Positions 4,255 through 60,373 of a stretch of DNA of 64,000 bases are shown piece by piece. Position 1 is the stretch's first letter. The number at the start of each line of letters is the position of its first letter. This stretch comes from Candidatus Omnitrophota bacterium (lineage in GTDB: Bacteria; Omnitrophota; Gorgyraeia; Gygaellales; Profunditerraquicolaceae). The position numbers and the translations under genes were made by a program. The stretch covers positions 1,112,359-1,176,358 of the forward strand of contig CAWDSS010000010.1 of assembly GCA_963805065.1 (NCBI GenBank), in the 5' to 3' direction. The notes beneath the pieces are model-generated. The model did not search any database. It was given only the letters and a program-made list of their open reading frames with translations, and was not told the origin of the DNA.

Positions 4255-5500
4255 ATATCGGAAATTTAAAAGAGATGAAGATTACGGAACTTAACAAATT
4301 AGCCAAAGAGCTAAACGTTAACGGCGTAAGCGGCGTAAAAAAGCAGGATCTTATATTTAAGATACTGCAGGCTCAGGCAGAAAAGGAAGGCTTGATGTTC
4401 GGGGAAGGGGTATTGGAGATACTTCCCGAAGGGTTCGGATTCTTGAGAAGCCCGAATTACAATTATCTGCCCTGCCCGGATGATATTTATATATCTCCTT
4501 CGCAGATCAGGAAGTTTGATTTAAGGACGGGCGATACGGTAAGCGGCCAGATCCGGCCGCCTAAAGAAGGTGAAAAATATTTCGCCCTTCTTAAGGTAGA
4601 AGCGGTGAATTTTGAGAATCCCGAGGATGCTAAAGAAAAGGTGTTATTCGATAACCTGACCCCGATATATCCTCACGAAGCATTTAACATGGAAACCAAG
4701 CCCGAAGAAATATCCATGAGGGTAATGAGTTTGCTTACCCCCATCGGTAAGGGCCAGCGCGGGCTTATCGTCGCCCAGCCTTACAGCGGAAAAACCGTGC
4801 TATTGCAGAAAATCGCCAATTCCATTACCAGCAATAATCCCGATGTGGTTTTGATCGTGCTTTTGATAGACGAGCGCCCGGAAGAAGTTACCGATATGCA
4901 GAGGAACGTCAAGGGTGAAGTAATATCGTCTACTTTTGATGAGCCGCCGGAAAGGCACGTCCAGGTAGCTGAAATAGTCTTGGAAAAAGCAAAGCGACTG
5001 GTAGAGCATAAAAGGGATGTAGTGGTCCTTTTGGACAGTATCACCCGCTTAGCCCGCGCTTATAACGCCGTGGTGCCGCATAGCGGAAAGGTACTTATCA
5101 GGCGGTATTGATTCCAATGCCCTGCAAAAACCCAAAAGATTTTTTGGTGCTGCCCGCGCAGTCGATGAGGGCGGAAGCCTTACGATAATCGCTACCGCGC
5201 TGGTTGATACCGGAAGCCGTATGGATGAAGTTATTTTTGAAGAATTCAAAGGAACCGGCAACATGGAATTACAGTTGGACAGGAATCTATTCCAGAGCAG
5301 AATTTATCCGGCCATCGAGATAAAGCGTTCAAATACCAGGCATGAGGAATTGCTGCTAAAACCTGAACATACTGCAGAAGATTTGGATATTAAGGAAGGT
5401 TTTGAATGAGTTGAGCAATGTAGAGGCAATGGAGCTTTTGATTGAAAAATTATCCAAGACAAAGAATAACGAGGAATTTTTAAACAGCATGAACCAATAA
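4242..5500 (+). pseudogene. rho: Transcription termination factor Rho, reading frame broken by two single-base insertions (near 5097 and 5368)
   Basis: Frame 0 (4242-5096) gives the Rho N-terminal and RNA-binding domains through [23 protein letters not shown]. Frame 1 (5098-5367) gives [58 protein letters not shown]. Frame 2 (5369-5500) gives [43 protein letters not shown]. The joined product is colinear with E. coli Rho. Confidence 0.9.
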
Positions 5501-5545
5501 AAGTTAAAAGTTAAAAGCAAAAAGTAAAAAGTAAAACTTAAAAGG
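5499..5545 (+). repeat. A-rich heptamer array (AAAAGTT x2, AAAAGCA, AAAAGTA x2, AAACTTA) upstream of rpmE
   Basis: 7-nt periodicity read directly. Shares the string AAAAGCAAAAAGTAAAAAGT with the reverse complement of the array at 45285-45326. Confidence 0.8.
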
Positions 5546-5553
5546 AGAAGAAA

Positions 5554-5754
5554 ATGAAAGACAAAATTCATCCGAATTACAAAGACAGCACAATCGTTTG
5601 TGCATGCGGAGAAACAATCCATACCCGCTCCACAAAACCAGCTATCAGGGTAGAGATATGTTCCAAGTGCCATCCATTTTTTACCGGAAAGCAGAAATTC
5701 GTGGATTCCGCAGGCAGGGTAGATAAATTCATGAAAAAATACGGTAAGAAATGA
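5554..5754 (+). CDS. rpmE: 50S ribosomal protein L31
   Basis: MKDKIHPNY...CACG...[13 protein letters not shown] is the L31 zinc-ribbon signature. AAGGAG lies upstream. Confidence 0.95.
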
Positions 5755-11353: not shown

Positions 11354-11409
11354 AAAACTCAAAAGGCAAAAGGAAAAAGTCAAAACTTCAACGTAAAACT
11401 AAAAACTTT
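11354..11409 (+). repeat. A-rich heptamer array (AAAACTC AAAAGGC AAAAGGA AAAAGTC AAAACTT ...) in the trpC-trpF gap
   Basis: Unit order matches the reverse complement of 60292-60343 (AAAACTC AAAAGGC AAAAGTC AAAACTG TAACGC ...), with one extra unit. Confidence 0.8.
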
Positions 11410-15736: not shown

Positions 15737-16756
15737 ATGGAAAATGTACTTTCCTGGCCCATGACAATAATATTATTAATAATCTTAGCATTGGTATCGT
15801 GTTTCTTTTCATTATCGGAGACTTCCATAGTCGGTTTAAGCAGGATCCGCCTTCGCCATATGATTTCACGGGGCGTGAGAGGCGCGCAGAGCATACAGCG
15901 CCTGATTACAAAACTGGACAAGTTTATTGTTGCGATTCTGGTAGGGAATAATTTTGTCAATATTGCAATGTCCGCAATTATAACAGGAATTTTCGTTTAT
16001 CATTTCGGTTATAGATTAGGAATACTTCTTGCTACGCTTATTGCCGCGTTGTTTATAGTCATAATATGCGAGATTACCCCAAAGATTTTAGCAATTAAAA
16101 ATACGGAACGCGCGGCTCTATTGGTCGCTCCGCTGATGGAAACATTTATCAAAATATTTAATCCTGTTATCTCTGTTTTTGAAGCCGCAGGCAGCATTAT
16201 TATTAGATTATTAAGAATTAAACACGCAAAAAGATCTCCCCTGGTTACCGAAGAAGAGCTAAGACTGATGATTGAGCTCGGTAAAGAAGAAGGATTCTTG
16301 AGCATAGAAGAGGCAAAGACACTGCAGCGCATTTTTGAATTTGGAAAGATTAAAGTCAGCGACGTAATGGTACTAAAGGATAAGATGATATCCGTAGACA
16401 TCAATATCACTCCGGGACAGCTCCTGGATATTTTTGTAGAAGAGGGTCATGCGAGACTGCCGGTATATAAGGGCTCGCCCGATAACGTCGTAGGAATTAT
16501 TTATGCCAGGGACTTATTGTACATTTTAAGGGATAAAGGATTATTCTTGCTGCAGGATCTTTTGCATGAGCCTTATTTTGTCCCATCTAACATGCAAGTA
16601 AGCGAACTCTTAAAGAGATTCCAACTGGATAAAATTCAGATCGCTATCGTTATTAATGAACATAAAAAGACAGTAGGCTTGGTTACACTTGAAGACTTAA
16701 TTGAAGAGATTGTGGGCGAGATAGAAGAGACACACCACAAGCATCGGCATAGATAA
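15737..16756 (+). CDS. CNNM/DUF21 transmembrane protein with CBS pair (TlyC/CorC-like), lacking a C-terminal CorC_HlyC domain
   Basis: N-terminal multi-TM region with FSLSETS, then a CBS-like region ending LEDLIEEIVGEIE. The ORF ends at a TAA contributed by the hairpin element. Confidence 0.8.
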   Translation: MENVLSWPMTIILLIILALVSCFFSLSETSIVGLSRIRLRHMISRGVRGAQSIQRLITKLDKFIVAILVGNNFVNIAMSAIITGIFVYHFGYRLGILLATLIAALFIVIICEITPKILAIKNTERAALLVAPLMETFIKIFNPVISVFEAAGSIIIRLLRIKHAKRSPLVTEEELRLMIELGKEEGFLSIEEAKTLQRIFEFGKIKVSDVMVLKDKMISVDINITPGQLLDIFVEEGHARLPVYKGSPDNVVGIIYARDLLYILRDKGLFLLQDLLHEPYFVPSNMQVSELLKRFQLDKIQIAIVINEHKKTVGLVTLEDLIEEIVGEIEETHHKHRHR

Positions 16757-16863
16757 GTGAGGACATAAGTTATGGAGAATAAAATTAAAAATGTATCCGA
16801 CATAACTTATCTGTCCGAACTTACCCGGCACATAAATTATGTGCTGGGTTATGGGCTCATTAA
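16753..16863 (+). repeat. Intergenic modular hairpin element, copy 1 (ATAAGTGAGGACATAAGTTATGG... family)
   Basis: The first ~75 nt are near-identical to 38189- and 39271-. Hairpins are GGACATAAGTTATG/CATAACTTATCTGTCC and CCCGGCACATA/TATGTGCTGGG (16824-16848). Ends GGGCTCATTAA. Confidence 0.85.
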
Positions 16864-17502: not shown

Positions 17503-19140
17503 ATGAAAGAAAATATCCAGCAAACATTAACAAAAATTTTAAGAGAAGCTTTAAGCGAACTCAAATTAGATAGCGATTATTGCGGGCAATTTTACCTTGA
17601 TTTTCCTACCGATGTACGCTTCGGAGACCTCTCCACAAATCTCGCCCTCAGGTTAAGTAAAATTTTAAAAAGGCCTCCGCTGGAAATTGCAAAAGAGATA
17701 ACGCAAGTTACAAATAAGCGCCTAGATAGGGACCCTTTAAGAGCTTACGTAAAAGAAATCAAGGCAGAGGGAGCCGGTTTTATCAATTTTTATTTGCAGG
17801 AAAAATATTTCTACGAACAATTAAAAAACATAATTTTAAAAGGTAAGGCTTATTTTAAACTAAATTCTGGTAAAGGAACAAAGGTTTTGATTGAATTCGT
17901 AAGTGCAAACCCCACTGGGCCATTATCTGTTGCCCATGCACGCCAGGCTGCAGTAGGGGATGGCTTGGCAAATATACTGGAATTCTTAGGTTTTAAGGTA
18001 AAAAGGGAATATTACCTTAATGATGAAGGCAACCAGATAAATATATTAGGAAAAAGCGTAGAATTGCGCCTTAAGGAGTTAAGCGGCGAGCATTTGGAGT
18101 TTCCTGAAAATTATTATCAGGGAGATTATATTTACGATATAGCCAGGAAAGTTAAAAATGAAAATTTGAAAGTTAAAGATTTAGGAGAATTCGCAGGCAA
18201 CTATATCCTGGGTATCATTAGAAATGAGTTGGATGATTTCGGCATAGAATTCGACATCTGGTATTCTCAAAAAGCCCTGCGTAAAAGCGGGAAGATTAAT
18301 AAAGCACTTGAATTTTTGAAGAAAAAAGGATTCTTATATGACCAGGAAGGCGCTTTGTGGTTTAAATCTAGCGCATTCGGGGATGATAAGGACAGGGTTG
18401 TGATAAAAAGCGATGGTGTCTATACCTATTTAGCCCCGGATATTGCTTATCATCAGGGAAAATATAAGCGCGGATTTAAGTGGTTGATAAATCTTTGGGG
18501 CCCGGATCATCACGGCTACATCGGCCGGCTTAAGGCAGCAGTTCAGGCACTAGGGTATTCACCAGATTCTTTATCAATCGTAATCGTGCAGTTAGCTACT
18601 ATTTTTCGGGATGGTAAATCAATCGAGATGTCCACCCGCAAAGGCCAATACATAACACTGCGTGAGGTGCTACAGGAAGTTGGAAAGGATTCTTCCCGTT
18701 TTTTCTTTATGATGCGCAGGACCGACAGCCACCTGGATTTTGATCTGGATGTCGCGAAAAAACAGACTCCGGAAAACCCCGTATATTATATACAATATGC
18801 CTATGCCAGAATCTGTAGTATCCTGCGTCAAGGGCAAATTAAGTTGAGAAAAGATGCTGATCTTGCGCTCTTAAAAGAAAAAGAAGAAGTTGGCTTGATT
18901 AAAAAGCTGATACAATTTAGCCCCATATTGAATATCTGCCTGGTTACTCAGGACCCTTACATGCTCACAGTATACCTTCAGGAGTTAGCCGAGGCATTTC
19001 ATAAATTCTACGACCAGCACCGCGTTTTAGGAGACAACGATTCTTTAACAGGCGCCAGGCTCCATCTCATTGAAGCAACGAAAACCGTATTAGCTGCAGG
19101 ATTGGAGTTGCTAGGTATTTCTAAGCCAGAAAAAATGTAA
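17503..19140 (+). CDS. argS: Arginine--tRNA ligase
   Basis: SANPTGPLSVAHAR (HIGH region) and a C-terminal DALR-type anticodon-binding region. 545 aa. Confidence 0.95.
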   Translation: MKENIQQTLTKILREALSELKLDSDYCGQFYLDFPTDVRFGDLSTNLALRLSKILKRPPLEIAKEITQVTNKRLDRDPLRAYVKEIKAEGAGFINFYLQEKYFYEQLKNIILKGKAYFKLNSGKGTKVLIEFVSANPTGPLSVAHARQAAVGDGLANILEFLGFKVKREYYLNDEGNQINILGKSVELRLKELSGEHLEFPENYYQGDYIYDIARKVKNENLKVKDLGEFAGNYILGIIRNELDDFGIEFDIWYSQKALRKSGKINKALEFLKKKGFLYDQEGALWFKSSAFGDDKDRVVIKSDGVYTYLAPDIAYHQGKYKRGFKWLINLWGPDHHGYIGRLKAAVQALGYSPDSLSIVIVQLATIFRDGKSIEMSTRKGQYITLREVLQEVGKDSSRFFFMMRRTDSHLDFDLDVAKKQTPENPVYYIQYAYARICSILRQGQIKLRKDADLALLKEKEEVGLIKKLIQFSPILNICLVTQDPYMLTVYLQELAEAFHKFYDQHRVLGDNDSLTGARLHLIEATKTVLAAGLELLGISKPEKM

Positions 19141-19290
19141 GTGAGGCCATAAGTTATGGAGCGAACACCCGGCTTTATCGGAACAGCCGGTGTGCCGCTT
19201 GTGCGGCAAGCGAACATAACTTATACGGCCGAACTTATCCTTGACACGTAAGGTTCAAATTGAGATGTAATCGAATTCGTGTCAAGGATC
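19138..19290 (+). repeat. Intergenic modular hairpin element, divergent copy 2
   Basis: Starts TAAGTGAGGCCATAAGTTATGGAGCGAACA. Hairpins are GGCCATAAGTTATG/CATAACTTATACGGCC, ACACCCGGCT/AGCCGGTGT and the 12-bp ATCCTTGACACG/CGTGTCAAGGAT. Its TAA is the argS stop. Confidence 0.8.
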
Positions 19291-34634: not shown

Positions 34635-35102
34635 ATGAAAATCTCGCAAAAAATAATTATAGCCACAGCCACGTTTTTTTATGTAGGGTTTCTGCCTTTG
34701 ATACCGGGTACGTTCGGCAGTATCGCAGGTATAATTTTGTATTTTTTCGTTAAGAATAACATTTATGTTTTTATGGTTTCTTTGGCCTTGGTTATTATTT
34801 TGGGGTTGGTGTTCAGCGGCAGGGCAGAGAGAATATTTCAGAAGAAGGATGCAAGTTTTATAGTCATAGATGAAGTAGCCGGCATGTTATTAAGCCTGAT
34901 GTTCCTCCCTTTCGATATAAAATTGGTGGCCCTTGCTTTTTTAATTTTCCGCGCCCTTGATACACTAAAGCCTTTTCCTGCGGGCGCACTCCAGGAGCTA
35001 AGGGGGAGCCTTGGCATAATGAGTGATGATATAATCGCAGGGTTGTATACTAATATTATTCTTCAGGTGGCTTTGAGGCTGGTTTGTTTTAAGGCTTCGT
35101 AG
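34635..35102 (+). CDS. pgpA: Phosphatidylglycerophosphatase A
   Basis: PgpA family: GTFGS, IVIDEVAGM and DTLKPFP motifs. Confidence 0.88.
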   Translation: MKISQKIIIATATFFYVGFLPLIPGTFGSIAGIILYFFVKNNIYVFMVSLALVIILGLVFSGRAERIFQKKDASFIVIDEVAGMLLSLMFLPFDIKLVALAFLIFRALDTLKPFPAGALQELRGSLGIMSDDIIAGLYTNIILQVALRLVCFKAS

Positions 35103-35635
35103 ACAGGCCCTTTTGGGGTAAGGGTGCTTTTAAACAAAGTAATCTTCGTAACAAGAAATTCCAGATTCTCTATTCCAAAATCATTTATCCTTGGTTTTAA
35201 ATCCCGAACTAATTTTACCATATTCAAGCTTGACTTGGTCCTTCCCAGGGTGATATGGGAGGAAAATGGCCTTTTTTCTTTAGGAATGCCTAATTTTTGA
35301 ATTTTTTCTTCCAGGGATTTTGCAATTGCCTTGCTCTCAGTATCTCCTTTATCTAACCCTACCCAGATTACCCGCGGTGAACTGATTCTGGGAAATGCCC
35401 CTACCGAACAAATGCAGATGTCAAATGGCTTTGTGCTCTCGGCAACACTCTCCATAATTGAAATCACCTTATTCAGTTTATCTTCGTTAATTTCGCCGAG
35501 GAATTTCAAGGTCAAGTGAATGTTTTGCGGCTCAACCCATTTGATATCAGCACCGCTTGCCTTTAGTTTATCCTGCAATTGCGCTAATGAATCTTTGATT
35601 TCTTGAGGTAGCTCTATCGCAATAAATGTTCTCAT
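35063..35635 (-). CDS. thpR: RNA 2',3'-cyclic phosphodiesterase (2H family, LigT/ThpR)
   Basis: Two H-x-T/S-x motifs: HLTLKF and HITLGR. 190 aa. Confidence 0.9.
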   Translation of the reverse strand: MRTFIAIELPQEIKDSLAQLQDKLKASGADIKWVEPQNIHLTLKFLGEINEDKLNKVISIMESVAESTKPFDICICSVGAFPRISSPRVIWVGLDKGDTESKAIAKSLEEKIQKLGIPKEKRPFSSHITLGRTKSSLNMVKLVRDLKPRINDFGIENLEFLVTKITLFKSTLTPKGPVYEALKQTSLKAT

Positions 35636-35649
35636 CGCTTACACTTTTT

Positions 35650-36135
35650 TCTAATCAATCTATCGTTCCTCTCGCTTAAGCTATAATTCGCGGGTCCTGT
35701 CTTGGTGTGTTTTTCGCGAGGACGCTCGTTTTGCCCCGGCGTGGCAAAACTTCGCTCATCTCGGCTTCGTCGCTCTGCCTGACTTCATTTACGAGGGGCA
35801 TCCGTGCCCGCTCCTCGCCTCCATGCCTCGCTCAAAATCACCCCAAGCCACCCGCTAATATACTAGACGCTCGGAGGGTAATTGTAAGTGTTGAATGAAT
35901 ATGGCGGAGTGGATACCTGAGTGACTTTTTGTGGGTGACGAGGCTTGATTTGAGCAGCACATAAGGAAGCCGGAGCGGGCATGGTTTGCCTCGTTAGAAA
36001 AGTATCCAAGAGCGAAGGCTTCCGCTTGCGCGAAGCAATTCCACGCTGGGGAATTGCGAGCGATGCTGCGAAAACAAGCCTCGGCAGGACCCACAAAAAA
36101 TCGACTGCGCGACAAAGACCGACAGATTCATTTAA
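35650..36135 (-). ncRNA. GC-rich two-domain structured element, copy A (candidate large ncRNA; sense strand defined by homology to copy B)
   Basis: Reverse complement aligns block by block with 49925-50447. Helix strands are 36076-36099/35925-35944 (domain 1) and 35838-35854/35689-35708 (domain 2). One 60-nt line is 39/60 GC against a much lower background. Confidence 0.6.
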
Positions 36136-36141
36136 TAAGAA

Positions 36142-36612
36142 TTATTTAATTAAATCTTTTAGCAGCTCCAAAGCTTTAGTGGCTGATTTTTTTCGAATCG
36201 TAGCTCTGTTGCCGGAAAAATGAAATTCTTTGCAGATAGTTTGGTATTTGCTAGCTGTGGCAATAAATACTGTTCCTACGGGTTTTTGTGCAGTTCCTCT
36301 TGTAGGGCCGGCTATGCCGGTAATACCGATTCCATAATCGCTCTTCGCTATTCTTCTTACTGATTGAGCCATGTTTTGAGCTGTTGCTTGGGATACGGCG
36401 CCTTTTAGCGCAATAATGCTTTTGGGTATTTTTAAGACATTTTGCTTGGCTTTATTGCTGTAGGCCACGACTCCCAAAAGCAAATATTTGGAACTGCCTG
36501 GGATCGCAGTCAACGCAGCAGAGAGGAGGCCTCCAGTGCATGACTCTGCAATAGCAATGGTGTGATGATTTTTTATCAGGAGTTTATGTAATTGCATTAC
36601 AATGGGTTGCAT
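36142..36612 (-). CDS. pncC: Nicotinamide-nucleotide amidohydrolase PncC / CinA C-terminal domain protein
   Basis: IAIAESCTGGLLSAAL motif, GIGITGIAGP. 156 aa. Confidence 0.88.
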   Translation of the reverse strand: MQPIVMQLHKLLIKNHHTIAIAESCTGGLLSAALTAIPGSSKYLLLGVVAYSNKAKQNVLKIPKSIIALKGAVSQATAQNMAQSVRRIAKSDYGIGITGIAGPTRGTAQKPVGTVFIATASKYQTICKEFHFSGNRATIRKKSATKALELLKDLIK

Positions 36613-36757: not shown

Positions 36758-36767
36758 TAATTCAATT

Positions 36768-36890
36768 AATCTTCAGGGCAAGGTGAGAATCCTAACCGGC
36801 GGTTTAGCCCGCGAGCCCGATCGAAAGAAAGGGCAGATCTGGTAAAATTCCAGAGCCGATGGTGACAGTCCAGATGAAAGAAGATTAAGA
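36768..36890 (+). ncRNA. FMN riboswitch (RFN element)
   Basis: CAGGGCAAGGTGAGAATCCTAACCGGCGGT...AGCCCGCGAGCC...GATCTGGTAAAATTCCAGAGCCGATGGTGACAGTCCAGATGAAAGAAGA matches the conserved RFN core. Located upstream of ribBA. Confidence 0.93.
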
Positions 36891-36927: not shown

Positions 36928-36977
36928 AATGAAGACACAACTTACGGAATGAAATGACATAAATTGTGCACTTACTT

Positions 36978-38192
36978 ATGTTTAATACAATTTCAGAGAT
37001 ATTGGAAGATTTAAAAAAAGGCAGGATGGTCATTGTGGTTGATGACGAGGACCGCGAAAATGAAGGCGACCTTGTTATGGCTGCCTCTTTTACTAAGGCC
37101 GAAGACATAAATTTCATGGCGAAATTCGGCAGAGGCCTTATTTGTGTCCCCATGGAAGAAGACCGGCTTAGACTATTGGGTTTAGAGCCGATGTTAAAGG
37201 ATAATATTCATCCTGCGAATAAAGAAGATCCTTTTAAAACTGCCTGGATGATTTCAGCTGATGCTGCTAAAGGCATAACCACGGGAATTTCTGCTCATGA
37301 CCGCAGCCGCACTATAGAAGTTTTAATAAATCCGCTCTCCTTAGCCGAAGACCTGATTCGCCCCGGCCATATTTTTCCTTTAAGGGCGCGCCGCGGAGGA
37401 GTTTTGGTACGCGCAGGGCACACTGAGGCGACAATAGATTTGATGCGGCTTGCAGGGCTGTATCCCGCAGGAGTTATCTGCGAAATCATGAATGACGACG
37501 GTTCCATGGCCCGCCTACCGCAGCTTCTGGAATTTTCCCAACGCCATAATTTAAAGATTTGTTCCATTGCCAGCCTCATAGAATACCGTCGGCGCTCAGA
37601 AATTTTGATAGAACGCGTTACGCAAACACGTCTTCCCACTGAATTCGGAGAGTACAAACTCATACTTTATCGGGACCTTACCAATAACAAAATTCATACC
37701 GCGTTGATTTTGGGGGATGCGGATAATAAAGGAATGCTTGTAAGGGTGCACTCTGAATGTTTGACTGGGGATGTCTTCGGGTCTTTGCGCTGTGATTGCG
37801 GCAGGCAGCTTAAGCGCGCTATGGAAATCATTCATAAAGAAAGAAAAGGGGTAATCCTGTATATGAATCAGGAAGGAAGAGGCATTGGTTTGGTTGATAA
37901 AATACGTGCCTACAGCCTACAGGATAAGGGATTGGATACCGTAGAAGCAAATGAAATGTTGGGCCATGCTGCAGACCTTAGGGATTACGGCATAGGCGCA
38001 CAGATATTGGTGGATTTAGGTTTAAAGAATATCAGGCTCCTGACAAATAATCCGCGTAAGATTGTAGGTTTAGAGGGTTATGGGCTTAAAGTCATTGAGC
38101 GCGTTCCCTTAGAGATTGAGCCCAATCCTATAAATTATAATTACCTGAAGACAAAAAAAGAAAAATTAGGGCACGATCTGAATATTGAATAA
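36978..38192 (+). CDS. ribBA: Bifunctional 3,4-dihydroxy-2-butanone-4-phosphate synthase / GTP cyclohydrolase II
   Basis: [12 protein letters not shown] (DHBPS) and [20 protein letters not shown] (GCHII). ATG 36978 preferred over the in-frame GTG 36966. Confidence 0.95.
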
Positions 38193-38367
38193 GTGAGGAC
38201 AATAGTTTTGGAGAATAAAATTAAAAATGTATCCGACATAACTTATATGTCCGAACTTACCCCACACCCAGAAAGAGATAATTTTAAAACTATCTCTGGG
38301 TGTGGGGTTAATTCGCGCAAATAACTTACGTTGCACTTCGTGCTGCCGTAAGTTATGCGCTCATTAA
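38189..38367 (+). repeat. Intergenic modular hairpin element, copy 3 (ribBA-ribH gap)
   Basis: ATAAGTGAGGACAATAGTTTTGGAGAATAAAATTAAAAATGTATCCGACATAACTTATATGTCCGAACTTAC, then a 12-bp hairpin (38260-38271 / 38296-38307), then ATAACTTACG/CGTAAGTTAT (38321-38330 / 38347-38356), then GCGCTCATTAA. Confidence 0.9.
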
Positions 38368-38864: not shown

Positions 38865-39278
38865 ATGCGTAAACGCACAAAAGCCAGGGAATTTGCTTTG
38901 CAGGTTCTTTATCAGATGGATATAACTCATGATGATGTCGGTGTCTCCTTAGGCAGTTTTTGGCAATCGCTGGAAGAAGATTTAGATACAGAGCTTAAGG
39001 ATTTTACTGAGGCGTTGGTTAAAGGGGTAGCCCAGAATTTAAAGACTATTGATGCAAAGATAACTCAATTTGCCGCCAACTGGAAGCTTGAACGTATGGC
39101 TGTAGTAGACAGAAATATCCTGCGCTTAGGCTGTTTTGAACTTTTGTTTAGAGAAGATATCCCGCCGAAAGTATCAATCAATGAAGGTGTTGAGCTTGCC
39201 AAGAAATATTCAGGCCCTGACGCAGGAAAATTCGTCAACGCTATCCTGGATAAGGTTAAGATAGAGAAAAATAAGTGA
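38865..39278 (+). CDS. nusB: Transcription antitermination factor NusB
   Basis: RTKAREFALQVLYQMD N-terminus and ILRLGCFELLF. ribH-nusB adjacency is classical. Confidence 0.93.
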   Translation: MRKRTKAREFALQVLYQMDITHDDVGVSLGSFWQSLEEDLDTELKDFTEALVKGVAQNLKTIDAKITQFAANWKLERMAVVDRNILRLGCFELLFREDIPPKVSINEGVELAKKYSGPDAGKFVNAILDKVKIEKNK

Positions 39279-39446
39279 GGACATAAGTTATGGAGAATAA
39301 AATTAAAAGTGTATCCGACATAACTTATATGTCCGAACTTACCCCACACCCAGCAATAATATTTGAGTTATATTTTTCTGGGTGTGGGGTTAATTCGCCC
39401 AAATAACTTACGTTCACTTTCGTTCCGTAAGTTATGGGCTCATTAA
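39271..39446 (+). repeat. Intergenic modular hairpin element, copy 4 (nusB-PHP gap)
   Basis: Same three modules as copy 3. The 12-bp hairpin is at 39342-39353 / 39378-39389 with a different loop. Ends GGGCTCATTAA, 1 nt before ATG 39448. Its TGA is the nusB stop. Confidence 0.9.
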
Positions 39447-42498: not shown

Positions 42499-45758
<3,260 letters not shown>

Positions 45759-48593: not shown

Positions 48594-48995
48594 ATGTCAA
48601 GACTTGACAGGGTTACCGAGGCGATAAGAAAAGAAGTGAGCATGATTTTACACGATGAATTAAAAGACCCAAGGCTGGGTTTTGTTACCATAACCAAGGT
48701 TACGATGACTGCTGACTTAAGGTCTGCTAAAGTATTCTTTAGCGTGTTAGGCAAAGAAGAGGAACACAAAAAAAGCAAACTGGCGCTTGATTCAGCGCTG
48801 GGGTTTATCCGTAAATTAGTTGCGGAAAGGATAAATTTAAGATTTGCCCCGGAGATTGCGTTTGTAGAAGACAGGTCAGTTGAATACAGCGTAAGAATTG
48901 AAGAAATCCTGAATGAGATAAAAGCAGAAACACAACCACGAAAGGAAAGCACAGGTGGGGTTAAAAAAAGTCGTAGAGTCCATAAAAAGAAATAA
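48594..48995 (+). CDS. rbfA: Ribosome-binding factor A
   Basis: RVTEAIRKEVSMILHDELKDPRLGFVTITKVTMTADLRSAKVFFS is RbfA-like. Confidence 0.92.
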   Translation: MSRLDRVTEAIRKEVSMILHDELKDPRLGFVTITKVTMTADLRSAKVFFSVLGKEEEHKKSKLALDSALGFIRKLVAERINLRFAPEIAFVEDRSVEYSVRIEEILNEIKAETQPRKESTGGVKKSRRVHKKK

Positions 48996-49929
48996 TAGAT
49001 TCTTGCTTACAGTCCATACAAATCCTGAAGGAGACGCCTTGGGTTCAGAGCTCGCTTTCTATTTTCTGCTTAAAAAAATGGGAAAGCAGGCGTTTATTTT
49101 AAATGAGGATGAAGTGCCCTATGGTTATAATTTTTTGCCGGGGGTAAGATACATTAAGAGACCCGGCACTCAAAAACGTTTTAAGAAAATGGATTTCGAT
49201 TGTTTTGTGGTATTGGATTGTTCTGATCCCCAGAGGACAGGCAGTGTCTATGGGGCTAATGCAAAGGGTAAGCTTATCCTGAATATCGATCATCACATCA
49301 GCAACAATAATTTCGCTGACGTCAATTGGGTAGAGCCGAAAAGTTCTTCCACTTCAGAAATGGTTTATAAGCTATTCAAGAAATTAGGGCTAGCTTTGGA
49401 TAAAGATACGGCTACTTGTTTATATGTGGGCATGCTTACAGATACAGGGTCATTCAGGTATTCTAATACCTCAAGTTCCACCCATAAAGCTGTTGCCAAG
49501 TTGCTTAACTTTAAACTGGATGTCCCGCAGATTTATAAAAATATTTACGAGAATATCCCATTTGAGGACATGAAATTATTAAGCAGGATATTGCCCGATA
49601 TGAAACGGGATTCATTAGGTAAAATTATCTTTTTTCAAATAGGAAAAAAGCTTTTAACCAACAGGAAACTTTCTTTTGACCTTACCGAATCTGTACTCAG
49701 TTTCGGCCGCGCCCTGAAAGATGCGCAGGTAACCGTGTTATTTAAAGAGAACTTAGGCGTTAAGGATGAAGTAAGGGTAAATTTCAGGTCGCAGGGCAAA
49801 GTTGATGTAAATAAGATCGCGCAGTTTTTCGGCGGCGGCGGCCATAAAACCGCAAGCGGCGCCACCATCCACGGAAAAATTAGTCAAGTCAGGAAAAAAG
49901 TTTTAGCTAAAATAAAAACAAGTCTTTGA
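48955..49929 (+). CDS. nrnA: DHH/DHHA1 phosphoesterase (NrnA-like oligoribonuclease / pAp phosphatase)
   Basis: HTNPEGDALGS, NIDHHISN (DHH) and GGGGHKTASG (DHHA1). GTG start overlaps the rbfA end. Confidence 0.85.
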   Translation: MGLKKVVESIKRNNRFLLTVHTNPEGDALGSELAFYFLLKKMGKQAFILNEDEVPYGYNFLPGVRYIKRPGTQKRFKKMDFDCFVVLDCSDPQRTGSVYGANAKGKLILNIDHHISNNNFADVNWVEPKSSSTSEMVYKLFKKLGLALDKDTATCLYVGMLTDTGSFRYSNTSSSTHKAVAKLLNFKLDVPQIYKNIYENIPFEDMKLLSRILPDMKRDSLGKIIFFQIGKKLLTNRKLSFDLTESVLSFGRALKDAQVTVLFKENLGVKDEVRVNFRSQGKVDVNKIAQFFGGGGHKTASGATIHGKISQVRKKVLAKIKTSL

Positions 49930-50447
49930 TGAATCTGATATTTTCTTCGTCAAGCGGTTTTTGCGGGTCCTGCCGAGGCACGTTCCTCGCGTCATCGCTC
50001 GCAATTCCCCAGCGTGGAATTGCTTCGCTCAAGCGGAAGCCTTCGCTCTTGGATACTTGTTTAACGAGGCAAACCATGCCCGCTTCGGCTTCCTTATGTG
50101 CCGCTCGTAACATGCCTCGTCACCCGCAAAAAATCCATTTTGATGCTCGAAATTCAGCCAGATTCATTTACAGCTATTCCCGAGCGCCTGCTATATTAGC
50201 GGGTGGCTTGGGGTGCACCTTGCCTTAAAGGATAGGCAAGTGCGTCCTTTTGGACTGATTTTGAGCGAGGCATGGAGGCGAGGAGCGGGCACGGATGCCC
50301 CTCGTAAATGAAGCCTGGCAGAGCGACGAAGCCGAGATGAGCGAAGTTTTGCCTCGCAGGGGCAAAACGAGCGTCCTCGCGAGAAACACCCCAAGACAGG
50401 ACCCGCGTAATGTAGAAAGCGAGAAAACCGGTAGGTTCATTAGCAAG
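49925..50447 (+). ncRNA. GC-rich two-domain structured element, copy B (candidate large ncRNA)
   Basis: Domain 1 is closed by 49950-49972 / 50105-50125. Domain 2 is closed by 50189-50205 / 50387-50406. Internal hairpins lie at 49993-50015, 50206-50232 and 50346-50368. Fills the nrnA-ribF gap exactly. Confidence 0.6.
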
Positions 50448-50453
50448 GAAATT

Positions 50454-51347
50454 ATGAAAATTATTCGAGGCATTAGCCAGATCAGAAAATTTAAGAACTC
50501 TGTAATTGCGCTGGGCGTATTTGACGGCGTGCATGTAGGTCATAGGATCATTCTAAAGGCTGCCGTAGCGAAAGCCCGCAGCATAAAAGGTACCAGCGTA
50601 GTCTTGACTTTTTGGCCTCACCCGCAAAAAGAAGAAAGCCTCTATTCATTGGAGCACCGCCTAAGATTAATAGAAGAAATAGGCGTAGATATTTGCATAG
50701 TCGTGAAATTCACTCCTAAGTTCGCCAGGATTACCGCAGATAATTTTATAAAGAATATTTTAGTCAAGAAACTTTCCTGCAGGTATATTTATGTTGGCAG
50801 CAATTTTAGTTTCGGAAAAGACGCCAGAGGAAATTACCAAACACTGACAAGGTTCTCCCGTAAATATAATTTTAAATTAAGGGTTTTCTATGTGGTTAAA
50901 CTTAATAATAAACCCATAAGCAGCACCTATATCAGGAAATTAGTGAAGGCAGGCAGGCTAGAAGAAGCAGGAACGCTCCTTACGCGTCCGGTAAGTATCC
51001 TGGGCACAGTCGTAAAAGGTAATGTCCTGGGCCGTTCGTTAGGTTTCCCTACGGCCAACATTAACCCTCATCATGAAGTAATTCCTCCCAGCGGTGTGTA
51101 TGCAGTGCGCGCAATCCTTGAGAATAAAGAATTTAAAGGCATCTGTTATATCGGTACCAGGCCGACCTTAAAAGGCAAAAGAGCCTTACGCATAGAAGTG
51201 CACATGTTTAATTTCCAAAAAAATATTTATAGCAGATATCTAGAGATTCAGTTTATAAAAAAGATAAGGGATGAAAGGAAATTTGATTCTCTCCTATCAT
51301 TAGCAAAACAAATCAGAAAAGACATAATTTCCGCAAAAAAACTGTAA
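50454..51347 (+). CDS. ribF: Bifunctional riboflavin kinase / FMN adenylyltransferase
   Basis: GVFDGVHVGH (FAD synthetase) and GFPTANI (riboflavin kinase). ATG 50454 follows AAGGAA. The ORF-track start at 50295 lies inside the GC-rich element. Confidence 0.92.
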   Translation: MKIIRGISQIRKFKNSVIALGVFDGVHVGHRIILKAAVAKARSIKGTSVVLTFWPHPQKEESLYSLEHRLRLIEEIGVDICIVVKFTPKFARITADNFIKNILVKKLSCRYIYVGSNFSFGKDARGNYQTLTRFSRKYNFKLRVFYVVKLNNKPISSTYIRKLVKAGRLEEAGTLLTRPVSILGTVVKGNVLGRSLGFPTANINPHHEVIPPSGVYAVRAILENKEFKGICYIGTRPTLKGKRALRIEVHMFNFQKNIYSRYLEIQFIKKIRDERKFDSLLSLAKQIRKDIISAKKL

Positions 51348-58963: not shown

Positions 58964-60253
58964 ATGATCAATAGAGAATATTTTAAAAACAAGAAAGTAC
59001 TCGTAGTGGGTTTTGCGCGTTCGGGGCTTGCAAGTTCCAATTTGCTTTATGATTTGGGAGCCGACGTACGCATTACCGACAATAAAGACTACGATTCCAC
59101 ACGCAATAACCTTAGGAAACTGAAATCAAGGAAGATAAAAGTTGAATTAGGAAAACACTCTCCGGAATTCGTCAAAGGCAATGATTATTTAATTATTTCT
59201 CCGGGTGTCACAGATACAGCCTTGCCAATTGCCTGGGCCAGGCAATTTAACATACCAATCATGAGTGAGATAGAGTTTGCCTGGATACTTTGCCCGGCAG
59301 GCATAATTGCAGTTACAGGCTCAAGCGGTAAAACTACTGTGACAACTTTAATTGGACAAATCCTGGAAGCCTCTGGCAAAAGAGCCTTTGTTTGCGGAAA
59401 CATAGGAAATCCCTTTAGCGGGGAAGTAGATAAGATGAGTGCCAAAGATTTTGTTTCTTTGGAGGTGAGTTCTTTTCAGTTACAACACATAGTAAATTTT
59501 AGGCCTAAGATTTCCGTGATATTAAACTTCAGCAAGAACCATTTAGACAGGCATAAGGATATGCTAGAATACTTAGATGCCAAAAAACGCATATTCCTGA
59601 ATCAAACTAAAGATGATTTCCTGGTGTTAAATGAGAATGACGCGGTATTAAAAAATCTGGCGGAAGAGACTAGCGCAAAAGTAGTATACTTTTCGCAATC
59701 CCTCCAATTCAATCCTAATCAGGCAGCGGCTGTAGCCGCTTGTTCGATACTGGGAATCTCTAAGGATATATGTATAAAGGTATTTTCTGAATTTAAAGGC
59801 CTCCAGCATCGTTTGGAATATGTTACGCAAATTAACAACATAAAATTTATAAACGATTCCAAGGCGACGCTTGTAGAATCTACTATCTGGGCAATAAATA
59901 ATTTGGCTACGCCGGTAATACTGATTGCCGGCGGCAAAGACAAGGGAGTGGATTATAAAGGCGTAATTGAAGTGGCCAGCAAGAAAGTAAGAGAAGTAAT
60001 TTTAATCGGGGAAGCAAAAGAGAAAATCAGAAATGCTTTTAAGGGACACTTAGCAACCGATGAAGCAGCTACTCTTGAAGAGGCGGTAAACAAAGCGTTC
60101 CGCAAGGCTAAGCCCGGGGATTCTGTATTACTCTCTCCTATGTGCTCTAGTTTTGATATGTTTTCCAGTTATGAGGAAAGAGGCAATTGCTTCAAAAAAG
60201 CAGTTTATGATTTAATGAAACAGAATGACACTTGTGATAAAGTCAAAACGTAA
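58964..60253 (+). CDS. murD: UDP-N-acetylmuramoylalanine--D-glutamate ligase
   Basis: N-terminal Rossmann VVGFARSG and P-loop VTGSSGKTTV. The last codons run into the heptamer array. Confidence 0.93.
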   Translation: MINREYFKNKKVLVVGFARSGLASSNLLYDLGADVRITDNKDYDSTRNNLRKLKSRKIKVELGKHSPEFVKGNDYLIISPGVTDTALPIAWARQFNIPIMSEIEFAWILCPAGIIAVTGSSGKTTVTTLIGQILEASGKRAFVCGNIGNPFSGEVDKMSAKDFVSLEVSSFQLQHIVNFRPKISVILNFSKNHLDRHKDMLEYLDAKKRIFLNQTKDDFLVLNENDAVLKNLAEETSAKVVYFSQSLQFNPNQAAAVAACSILGISKDICIKVFSEFKGLQHRLEYVTQINNIKFINDSKATLVESTIWAINNLATPVILIAGGKDKGVDYKGVIEVASKKVREVILIGEAKEKIRNAFKGHLATDEAATLEEAVNKAFRKAKPGDSVLLSPMCSSFDMFSSYEERGNCFKKAVYDLMKQNDTCDKVKT

Positions 60254-60343
60254 AAGTCAAAACGCAAAACTTAAACGCAAAACTTAAAACGTTTTAAATT
60301 TTGCGTTACAGTTTTGACTTTTGCCTTTTGAGTTTTGAGTTTA
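60238..60343. repeat. Heptamer-array hairpin (AAAAGTC/AAAACGC/AAAACTT arm; TTTTGCG/TTTTGAC/TTTTGAG arm) in the murD-ftsW gap
   Basis: Left arm 60238-60291, right arm 60292-60343, turn at AAAACG|TTTT. The right arm is the reverse complement of the array at 11354-11409. Confidence 0.85.
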
Positions 60344-60373
60344 TTCTGTTATTCGAATTTTGTCGCTTCGCTT

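Follow-up and report, generated by a model that had tools for sequence, protein, structure and literature searches.

The 64-kb window analysed here, a stretch of contig CAWDSS010000010.1 from a Candidatus Omnitrophota genome, contains a GC-rich block that fills the gap between nrnA and ribF (copy B), and a paralogous block (copy A) on the opposite strand between a thpR-like and a pncC/cinA-like gene. An earlier note, written from the letters of the sequence, had proposed that copy B is one large structured RNA of about 520 nt with two different domains. The description of the block largely survives scrutiny: its GC content of 0.53 exceeds the 0.41 of the window, it extends from the nrnA stop codon to 7 nt before the ribF ATG at 50454, and its paralog does lie at about 35650-36135. 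The interpretation does so in part only, because the two "domains" are paralogous units of about 168 nt in inverted orientation, the left in sense on the plus strand and the right in sense on the minus strand, which together form a convergent dimer.

A dimer of inverted paralogous units

The evidence for two related units is as follows: i) window positions 49948-50130 on the plus strand, the reverse complement of 50185-50412, and both halves of copy A all align as homologs, a relationship between the two domains that the earlier note had missed; ii) a covariance model of the unit (R1) finds exactly four units in the window, scoring 117-149 bits; iii) the closing-helix segments CGAGGCA/TGCCTCG of one unit type are swapped for CTTGGGGTG/CACCCCAAG in the other, and the hairpin GCAATTCC/GGAATTGC for GTTTTGCC/GGCAAAAC, so that helices are kept through total replacement of their sequence and the pairing within units is therefore conserved; and iv) GCGGGTCCTG, found at 49963-49972, is present at both outer ends of the dimer. 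The C-rich form of the unit with CGCTC motifs (the Y strand) is the plus strand in B-u1 and the minus strand in B-u2, where the G-rich R form and its GAGCG motifs appear on the plus strand; alignment with A-u2 puts the rest of the 3′ strand of B-u2 P1 at 50199-50215. GC content within units is 0.58-0.60.

Homology between copy B and the reverse complement of copy A spans ATGAATCTG to ATTAG, with inverted repeats (I1, I2, I9, and I20) that are 89-93% complementary between the copies, and identity falls to 38% beyond the block. Identity is 90% (u1) and 96% for the units, 56% for the linker, and 53-68% for the short outer flanks, with indels of 1, 3, 8, and 42 nt, and the u1/u2 order is the same at two unrelated sites although the linker has diverged. 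The neighbors of copy A are two co-directional minus-strand genes, and copies A and B are equally oriented relative to their neighbors. The left flank of copy B is weakly complementary to the right flank (AATGAATCTG / AGGTTCATT).

Several finer points of the earlier note were borne out by this comparison: two compensatory double changes in the closing helix of the first domain (GCGGGT/ACCCGC to GTGGGT/ACCCAC, and CGAGGCA/TGCCTCG to CGAGGCT/AGCCTCG), a linker that aligns poorly, a hairpin at 50346-50368 that keeps its stem and changes its loop, and a hairpin unique to copy B, which corresponds to a 42-nt block. All of the helix strings that it quoted exist, but several had been placed 8-10 nt too low: TTTTTGCGGGTCCTGCCGAGGCA lies at 49958-49980 rather than 49950-49972, TGCCTCGTCACCCGCAAAAA at 50113-50132, GCGGGTGGCTTGGGGTG at 50199-50215, the hairpin GCAATTCC/GGAATTGC at 50001-50023, and the hairpin CACCTTGCC/GGCAAGTG at 50216-50242.

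The further claim that every reading frame is open on both strands was mistaken, since each of the six frames contains 3-9 stop codons within 49925-50447. These stops, the indels between copies A and B, and variation across the family that is compensatory in the helices and leaves the length of one arm (P5) free lead us to reject a coding role, whether as a small protein or as a 5′ extension of ribF. ORFs (open reading frames) of 49-115 codons do overlap the region on both strands, and an in-frame ATG at 50295 would extend ribF, but orthologous ribF genes begin at the position of the 50454 ATG, and we give the coding explanation next to no credence.

Features of the two dimer copies and their surroundings, with hairpins at loci outside the window (L-numbers) in the last rows
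Feature	Coordinates	Strand	Basis or remark
thpR-like gene, downstream of copy A	35063-35635	-	ORF list; putative name, judged from sequence
Copy A of dimer	35650-36135	opposite to copy B	between thpR-like and pncC/cinA-like genes
Unit A-u2	35689-35857	+	R1 148 bits, E = 4.9e-34; counterpart of B-u2, without 42-nt module
Unit A-u1	35929-36095	-	R1 149 bits, E = 1.9e-34; counterpart of B-u1
pncC/cinA-C-like gene, upstream of copy A	36142-36612	-	ORF list; putative name
nrnA (DHH/DHHA1)	48955-49929	+	ORF list; Pfam families on identical protein; stop codon abuts element
Copy B of dimer	49929-50445	.	entire block common to copy A, nrnA stop to ribF start
Left flank, outside B-u1	49929-49961	.	53% identity between copies vs 38% outside element
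Unit B-u1	49962-50129	+	R1 142 bits, E = 9.5e-33, full length; 90% identical to A-u1
B-u1 helix P1a	49963-49968/50122-50127	+
B-u1 helix P1b	49974-49982/50111-50119	+
B-u1 helix P2	49989-49994/50099-50104	+
B-u1 P3 hairpin	50001-50023	+
B-u1 helix P4	50035-50041/50087-50093	+
Linker joining 3′ ends of convergent units	50130-50198	.	AT-rich, GC 0.39; 56% identity A vs B, 12 gap columns
Unit B-u2	50199-50407	-	R1 117 bits, E = 1.4e-26, over 50238-50407
Optional 42-nt double-hairpin module in 3′ strand of B-u2 P1b	50216-50257	-	missing from copy A
Right flank, outside B-u2	50408-50445	.	68% identity between copies
ribF (FAD synthetase)	50454-51347	+	ORF list; orthologous arrangement with FAD_syn/Flavokinase in relatives
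GTAG hairpins, L167	2954-3227		beside RAYT-like gene
GTAG hairpins, L238	2940-3001		beside RAYT-like gene
GTAG hairpins, L239	2818-3001		beside RAYT-like gene
GTAG hairpins, L240	2839-3001		beside RAYT-like gene
GTAG hairpins, L241	500-664		beside RAYT-like gene

Fold of the unit and extent of the family

Our structural model of the unit comprises 52 base pairs and was drawn from 47 units. The fold begins with P1a, continues through an internal loop into P1b and P1c, passes a tandem mismatch to P2, and opens into a three-way junction from which the arms P3a-P3 and P4-P5 emerge; the closing stem P1a-P1b-P1c-P2 amounts to an interrupted helix of about 25 bp, the P3 hairpin has 7-8 bp, the P4-P5 arm varies in length because P5 ranges freely from about 10 to more than 70 nt, and the ends read (T)GCGGGT ... 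ACCCGC(TAA). In the 47-unit alignment 84% of pair cells pair, compared with 34-45% in slid controls. Among the 123 units that the covariance model identifies in 100 loci, the corresponding figures are 86.4% and 40-49%, double-change cells number 1,478 compared with 232-392 in slid controls, and 47 of the 52 pairs change on both sides. Each domain of the window element is thus closed by its own helix and contains internal hairpins, as the earlier note had proposed, with massive covariation over more than 200 homologues, and the support for the fold is on a par with that for many riboswitches.

About 45 unpaired nucleotides are near-invariant; the conserved unpaired stretches are CGCTCG, the P3 loop CCNGCGN, CTTCGCTC, TCGCTCT, ACCNTGCCCGCTC, and ACG. 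On the Y strand CTCG stands opposite CTCG in all arms (C-G, U.C, C.U, G-C), which on the R strand becomes CGAG opposite CGAG, a tandem G.A, and the base pair adjoining the tandem mismatch covaries between C-G and U-A. A reading of the CGAG/CGAG motif and its AAG bulge as a kink-turn was rejected by inspection, the order of helices being unlike that of the standard motif.

A double-hairpin module of 38-43 nt occupies the identical point of P1b in B-u2 and in a unit outside the window (L061 7754-7922), and is missing from the closest relative of each (A-u2 and the near-twin L073, respectively). The module may represent either a very small mobile insertion or an optional domain of the structure; both the optional hairpin and the stem of variable length, to which the earlier note had drawn attention, are genuine features of the family. 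In these two units, which come from different genomes, the module reads TCCnnAAGGAC-GCACTTGCC...GGCAAGGTG and has the borders CAG/CAC or CAGTC/CAGTC.

A scan of one genome per species with a degenerate 21-base pattern for the context of the P3 hairpin, in which ten stem positions were left free, matched at least 109 stretches; among the matches listed nearly all carry the label Candidatus Omnitrophota, and the others that of uncultured Planctomycetales (some) or Margulisiibacteriota (one). The free stem positions are complementary in about 105 of 116 matches and represent more than 25 distinct stem sequences. A second, independent pattern that leaves P3 unconstrained matched at least 120 metagenome contigs, in which the model confirms 92 + 25 units, and there the P3 loop CCNGCGN and the CGCTCG junction are still nearly invariant though not imposed. 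The family thus totals more than 200 copies across more than 100 Omnitrophota genomes and metagenome contigs. A phage origin was considered and rejected, as IMG/VR gave just two pattern matches and the covariance model confirmed neither.

The phylum Omnitrophota is uncultured and found worldwide, its members being mostly ultra-small and possibly host-dependent bacteria, and to our knowledge nothing has been established about their non-coding genome. A cmscan of Rfam 15 at gathering thresholds gave the units zero matches in the window or in 20 other loci (about 30 units), and at E <= 10 returned noise only; full-text literature searches found no description of such repeats in Omnitrophota, and the main genomic survey of the phylum annotated RNAs by Rfam only. 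The earlier hypothesis was right about conserved helices and about novelty, and wrong about one large two-domain RNA. The family is probably the most abundant conserved non-coding element of these genomes, and could serve as a ready marker for the phylum.

Many metagenome contigs start or end within a unit, and the repeats therefore fragment short-read assemblies: a short-read contig with an identical nrnA stops exactly at the element, and other contig ends within units include L174 1-142 and 3065-3206, L016 1-118, the end of L001, and ends in L131, L118, L124, L130, and L180.

Left to energy minimisation, copy B folds quite differently. Because the units are inverted paralogues, the minimum-energy fold of either strand brings the two halves together as a giant hairpin (-228 and -224 kcal/mol, z = -7.3 and -8.3), in which the left flank (49929-49961) also pairs with 50432-50445, and the element might on that account be taken for a 520-nt foldback RNA or a DNA cruciform, for example an RNase III processing stalk between nrnA and ribF. 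Such pairing is, however, a trivial consequence of inverted paralogy; covariation backs the helices within units, and most units have no detectable partner. Moreover, partner units are no more alike than random members of the family (identity 0.57-0.71 with a mean of 0.62, compared with a family mean of 0.61 and a within-genome mean of 0.76), from which we conclude that the dimers are heterodimers and that a giant hairpin is not selected for. Complementarity between units is not maintained, and may be avoided. The giant hairpin is already disfavored, and we regard it as very improbable; a model in which each unit folds independently when single-stranded fits the data better.

Distribution, pairing, and turnover of the units

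Copies are intergenic in all cases and are flanked by unrelated housekeeping genes. An all-against-all BLAST of 675 flanking ORFs gave housekeeping clusters only, without any recurrent neighbor gene or transposase, and no transposase between or beside units could be linked to the family in about 240 loci. Single metagenome-assembled genomes (MAGs) can carry six or more unit loci, and units at different loci of one genome are in some cases 0.93-0.97 identical; mean identity is 0.76 within genomes compared with 0.61 between them. Most units are single or form tight dimers between housekeeping genes. Of 24 pairs of neighboring units, 17 are convergent and 4 have the same orientation; at gaps below 1.6 kb there are 17 convergent pairs against 1 divergent, and an antisense motif cluster lies within 250 nt of the 3′ end in 35 of 161 units, compared with 3-4 for the other three configurations. 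The convergent units of tight dimers outside the window are separated by 15-118 nt, and empty pairs have short, non-conserved spacers; elsewhere the gap holds genes.

Some partner units belong to divergent types that the model misses, a conserved example being GGCGGTTTTCGAGCGAATG...GATTTTAGCC.... In at least 8 loci (L062 at about 2080-2200, L009, L081, L044, L037 4040-4180, L013, L088, and L032) another type of conserved element, GGCGGTTTTCGAGCGAATGTCGATTTTAGCCAATGGAGCTTGAGCATTTCGGGAATCCC-hairpin-GGGATGGCGATGC, is found 27-55 nt 3′ of an R1-type unit, in convergent orientation. It is probably a divergent class of unit undetected by R1.

The nrnA-ribF junction itself illustrates turnover. In one relative (L114, NrnA 75% identical) the gap is 24 nt and the element is absent; in another at 71% (L111/L112) the 432-nt gap is occupied by a unit that is truncated, a mini-unit with an internal deletion, a spacer, and, abutting ribF, one full unit. 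The mini-unit (L111 4044-4110), at the same site as the window element, consists only of P1a-P1b-P1c-P2 and a short closing loop: TAGCGGGTCCTGCCTCGGGTATTTTCTTGCGCTCACGCGCTGCGAAAACACCCGAGTCACCCGCTA. Units are thus dispersed, present in multiple copies and both orientations, polymorphic for presence and absence, and represented by decayed as well as near-identical copies, none of which suits the single functional RNA of the earlier note.

Orientation relative to transcription is biased. Single units between co-directional genes present the Y form in the mRNA sense in 52 cases and the R form in 25 (p = 0.003), a bias replicated in two data sets (28:14 and 24:11), with units beginning, at the median, 27 nt past the upstream stop codon. 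No promoter- or terminator-like conservation is seen at unit borders: nothing is conserved past CCGCTAA, and A-runs rather than T-runs follow P1.

The element is, as the data above show, a convergent heterodimer of ~168-nt members of an undescribed, structure-constrained Omnitrophota family of interspersed repeats. The explanation that we favor, with a probability of roughly 0.55, is that this family is an unusually large and deeply conserved repeat like the repetitive extragenic palindromic (REP) sequences, the bacterial interspersed mosaic elements (BIMEs), and the REPINs. The invariant surface of junction and mismatches would be what a trans-acting factor, encoded at another place in the genomes, recognizes, and with the help of this factor units would be copied into AT-rich gene boundaries, usually as convergent pairs. 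Once inserted, they would persist for long and decay slowly, and, since they come without promoter or terminator, would be carried inside read-through mRNAs. There they may also stabilise or insulate the upstream message as a structure at its 3′ end, as the 2:1 orientation bias and the position about 27 nt after stop codons suggest. By analogy, such behavior would resemble that of REP/BIME/REPIN or ERIC repeats, which the units exceed about five- to tenfold in size and by far in depth of conservation. The window dimer, on this explanation, simply fills the nrnA-ribF junction, which is 24 nt long in a relative.

Several observations weigh against this explanation: i) the same intergenic site carries units in species with just 55-70% identity between their flanking proteins, and such shared sites, together with a core that is invariant across the phylum, fit a host function better than a selfish repeat (units at conserved sites are sometimes in opposite orientation between species, as expected if alternate dimer halves were lost); ii) no target-site duplication could be defined, in that the borders of copies A and B show no direct repeat and the empty L114 site is too diverged for its junction to be read; iii) no transposase or other enzyme is linked to the units; iv) mobilization as a REPIN by a REP-associated tyrosine transposase (RAYT) had to be rejected, as described below; and v) the indicators of the folding strand conflict, energetics favoring the R strand and the mRNA bias the Y strand.

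The last point deserves detail. We modelled the Y strand, which is 35% C and 26% G. Over all helices G.U pairs outnumber A.C pairs by 285 to 137, but about 113 of the G.U cells fall in P4, which in one subfamily is mis-registered by the model, the real helix on inspection containing a further tandem mismatch of pyrimidines (GGCTGC opposite GCCTCC); with P4 excluded, G.U and A.C number about 170 and 125, roughly balanced and not decisive for either strand. The R strand is the more stable in 190 of 194 units, although G-rich sequences fold better in general; against dinucleotide shuffles the z-scores are -5.5 for the R strand and -4.6 for the Y strand, with R the better in 29 of 36 units, a modest advantage that probably stems from the G.A mismatches. 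On neither strand do the units show an excess of UNCG or GNRA tetraloops. The orientation bias could reflect a role in mRNA, or equally a replication-linked mechanism acting on single-stranded DNA, since genes are co-oriented with replication.

These same data bear on whether the unit is a functional structured RNA module, whether as a protein-binding or catalytic RNA that many transcripts carry or as a small RNA with multiple copies; convergent pairing would then ensure one functional copy on whichever strand is transcribed. Covariation in all helices combined with so many near-invariant unpaired nucleotides is usual for RNAs that have tertiary structure or bind a partner; the variable P5 and the optional hairpin at a fixed site resemble RNA expansion segments; tandem G.A in a CGAG context is a stable and common RNA motif, and here it falls on the G-rich strand, the one with the better z-score; the orientation bias is significant; positions are kept across species with flanking proteins 55-70% identical; and in the window the units have stayed 90-96% identical while the linker has not. 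Yet one third of single units lie in the opposite orientation, promoter- and terminator-like conservation is absent on both sides, the common tetraloops are not enriched, energetics and mRNA bias point to different strands, the units associate with no gene class and have no Rfam relative, and truncated or internally deleted copies, together with an empty orthologous site, show that individual copies are dispensable. We think an RNA module possible, and worth taking seriously, without thinking it likely.

Genes enclosed by unit pairs suggest a different function. Fifteen convergent pairs, 376-2144 nt apart, enclose one or two genes or, in the case of L037, a third unit. The enclosed DNA is AT-rich: its GC content is 0.35 compared with 0.44 in the remainder of the locus, and it is the lower of the two in 14 of 15 cases (p = 0.003). 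The enclosed genes are accessory or defence-like and never the same: AbiGi, SIR2_2, DUF5677, ORF6N, Y1_Tnp, membrane proteins, and proteins without recognizable identity. ORF6N-domain proteins also recur beside units or at the 3′ junction of nrnA (L113 4025-4537; L050 1512-2054; L025 8-517 and 2216-2599), and in L113 the gene after nrnA is an ORF6N gene rather than ribF.

Units might accordingly be the boundary or recombination sites of a gene-cassette system, in which a convergent pair is either a vacant docking site or the pair of termini that delimits a small mobile cassette, and foreign genes are inserted, exchanged, or inverted between the 3′ ends of paired units, much as at attC or dif sites but with a larger folded site. 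Integron attC sites are diverse in sequence, conserved in structure, and function folded and single-stranded, with two short helices, an unpaired spacer, and a variable terminal structure; P1, with its two short helices, asymmetric internal loop, and variable distal structure, resembles such a site, and the association with small accessory genes of unknown function is another likeness. Empty pairs, with their short and non-conserved spacers, also speak for a cassette system. The differences are substantial: the RYYYAAC/GTTRRRY core is absent, as are same-orientation arrays, units are larger than attC (57-141 nt) and flank genes as convergent pairs where attC occurs once per cassette in the same orientation, and no integrase was seen nearby. 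The Xer-dependent dif modules of Acinetobacter plasmids, small accessory gene modules between inverted copies of a recombination site, match the geometry of the gene-bearing pairs, but dif is a 28-bp double-stranded site without a fold, and the brackets here are 168-nt folded units. No recombinase was seen beside the pairs, neither the inner ends nor the spacers showed a conserved core, no locus was found that is empty in one genome but filled in a second, and the majority of units are single or tight dimers between housekeeping genes. We therefore judge a cassette system quite unlikely.

A broader proposal, rather unlikely in our estimation, is that the unit is the recognition module of a phylum-wide Omnitrophota system whose convergent heterodimers mark or create sites that hold horizontally acquired genes, either as the folded single-strand recombination sites of a new mechanism of cassette capture, or as RNA or DNA insulators that wall foreign genes off from read-through on both sides; the nrnA-ribF dimer would then be an unoccupied docking site. 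Whatever the mechanism, the link to low-GC, defence-like genes offers a practical route to accessory genes in these MAGs.

The Y1_Tnp protein enclosed by units in L167 belongs to a widespread family that sources name RayT, and might have supplied the enzyme for the repeat that we favor. However, five other Omnitrophota RAYT-like loci lie tightly between housekeeping genes without 168-nt units nearby, and the RAYT-like genes, that of L167 included, carry their own classical hairpins of about 30 nt with a 5′ GTAG, for example TTGTAGGGGAGGGTTTTAAACCCTCCCCTACAA. These genes and their GTAG hairpins are a separate, ordinary REP/RAYT system that co-exists with the 168-nt units and does not account for them.

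Comparison with known elements, and other features of the window

REPINs are inverted REP doublets with a spacer, extragenic and long-lived (PMC3337134, PMC5581495). The Omnitrophota family is likewise extragenic and multi-copy, its palindromic units fold when single-stranded and form inverted doublets with a short spacer, singlets look like decayed doublets, and the family has persisted for long in its lineage. The members of a pair are of different subtypes, as are the Y and Z REP types of BIMEs (PMC3337134, PMC5581495). On the other hand, the unit is a three-way junction of about 168 nt rather than a hairpin of 20-40 nt, has no GTAG at either end, is conserved in its core across a phylum where REPs are conserved across a genus, and does not flank the RAYT-like genes, which have GTAG hairpins of their own; unit pairs can, moreover, enclose genes. 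Two of the four defining features of REP/BIME/REPIN systems are thus present (inverted doublets; extragenic, multi-copy occurrence) and two are absent (a short GTAG hairpin; a flanked RAYT).

Among larger repeats, ERIC/IRU, Correia (NEMIS), RUP, and BOX elements are non-coding intergenic repeats of 100-200 nt with terminal inverted repeats, which are co-transcribed and fold in RNA. The family is of their size class, is intergenic as they are, and equally lacks coding capacity. They are, however, restricted to a genus or family, their copies are similar and without systematic compensatory change, and several have target-site duplications and a known parent insertion sequence (IS), whereas our family averages 61% identity with pairing maintained, and neither a duplication nor a parent element was found. 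Miniature inverted-repeat transposable elements (MITEs) offer a likeness in the terminal inverted units at the dimer ends and in having all frames closed. The earlier note had set against its RNA a plain MITE with near-identical copies and target-site duplications, and this does not describe the family either, for mean identity is 0.61, some within-genome pairs reach 0.93-0.97, and no parent IS is apparent.

Large structured RNAs such as OLE, GOLLD, ROOL, HEARO, and raiA resemble the element in that they form GC-rich islands within AT-rich genomes, covary strongly, and conserve the nucleotides of their junctions, but their Rfam models do not match, and the family is multi-copy, in both orientations, and forms inverted dimers; HEARO further differs in its associated ORF, which units lack. 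Should the units prove to be a REPIN-like replicator, the concept would extend to elements ten times larger and to a whole phylum, and a partner enzyme would be implied; should they be an RNA or a cassette boundary, they would represent a new class.

Three further features of the window deserve mention. An FMN (flavin mononucleotide) riboswitch (RF00050, 115 bits, 36765-36889 on the plus strand) precedes a ribBA-like ORF (36966-38192) and is separated by about 150 nt from the pncC-like gene next to copy A; with ribF beside copy B, both dimer copies therefore adjoin riboflavin-related loci. A second, unrelated family of repeats of 90-170 nt, 86-94% identical, is found at 16749-16838, 19133-19240, 38188-38341, and 39267-39423, each copy with an internal inverted repeat ACATAACTTATATGTCCGAACTTACCCCACACCCAG / CTGGGTGTGGGGTTAATTCG..AAATAACTTACGT (D1, D4-D6, I3, I10, and I11). 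Finally, A-rich periodic palindromes of 55-100 nt with AAAAGT/AAAACG-like hexamers, mutually similar and self-complementary (D2, I4-I7, and I13), lie at 5494-5559, 11354-11409, 45226-45326, and 60237-60344.

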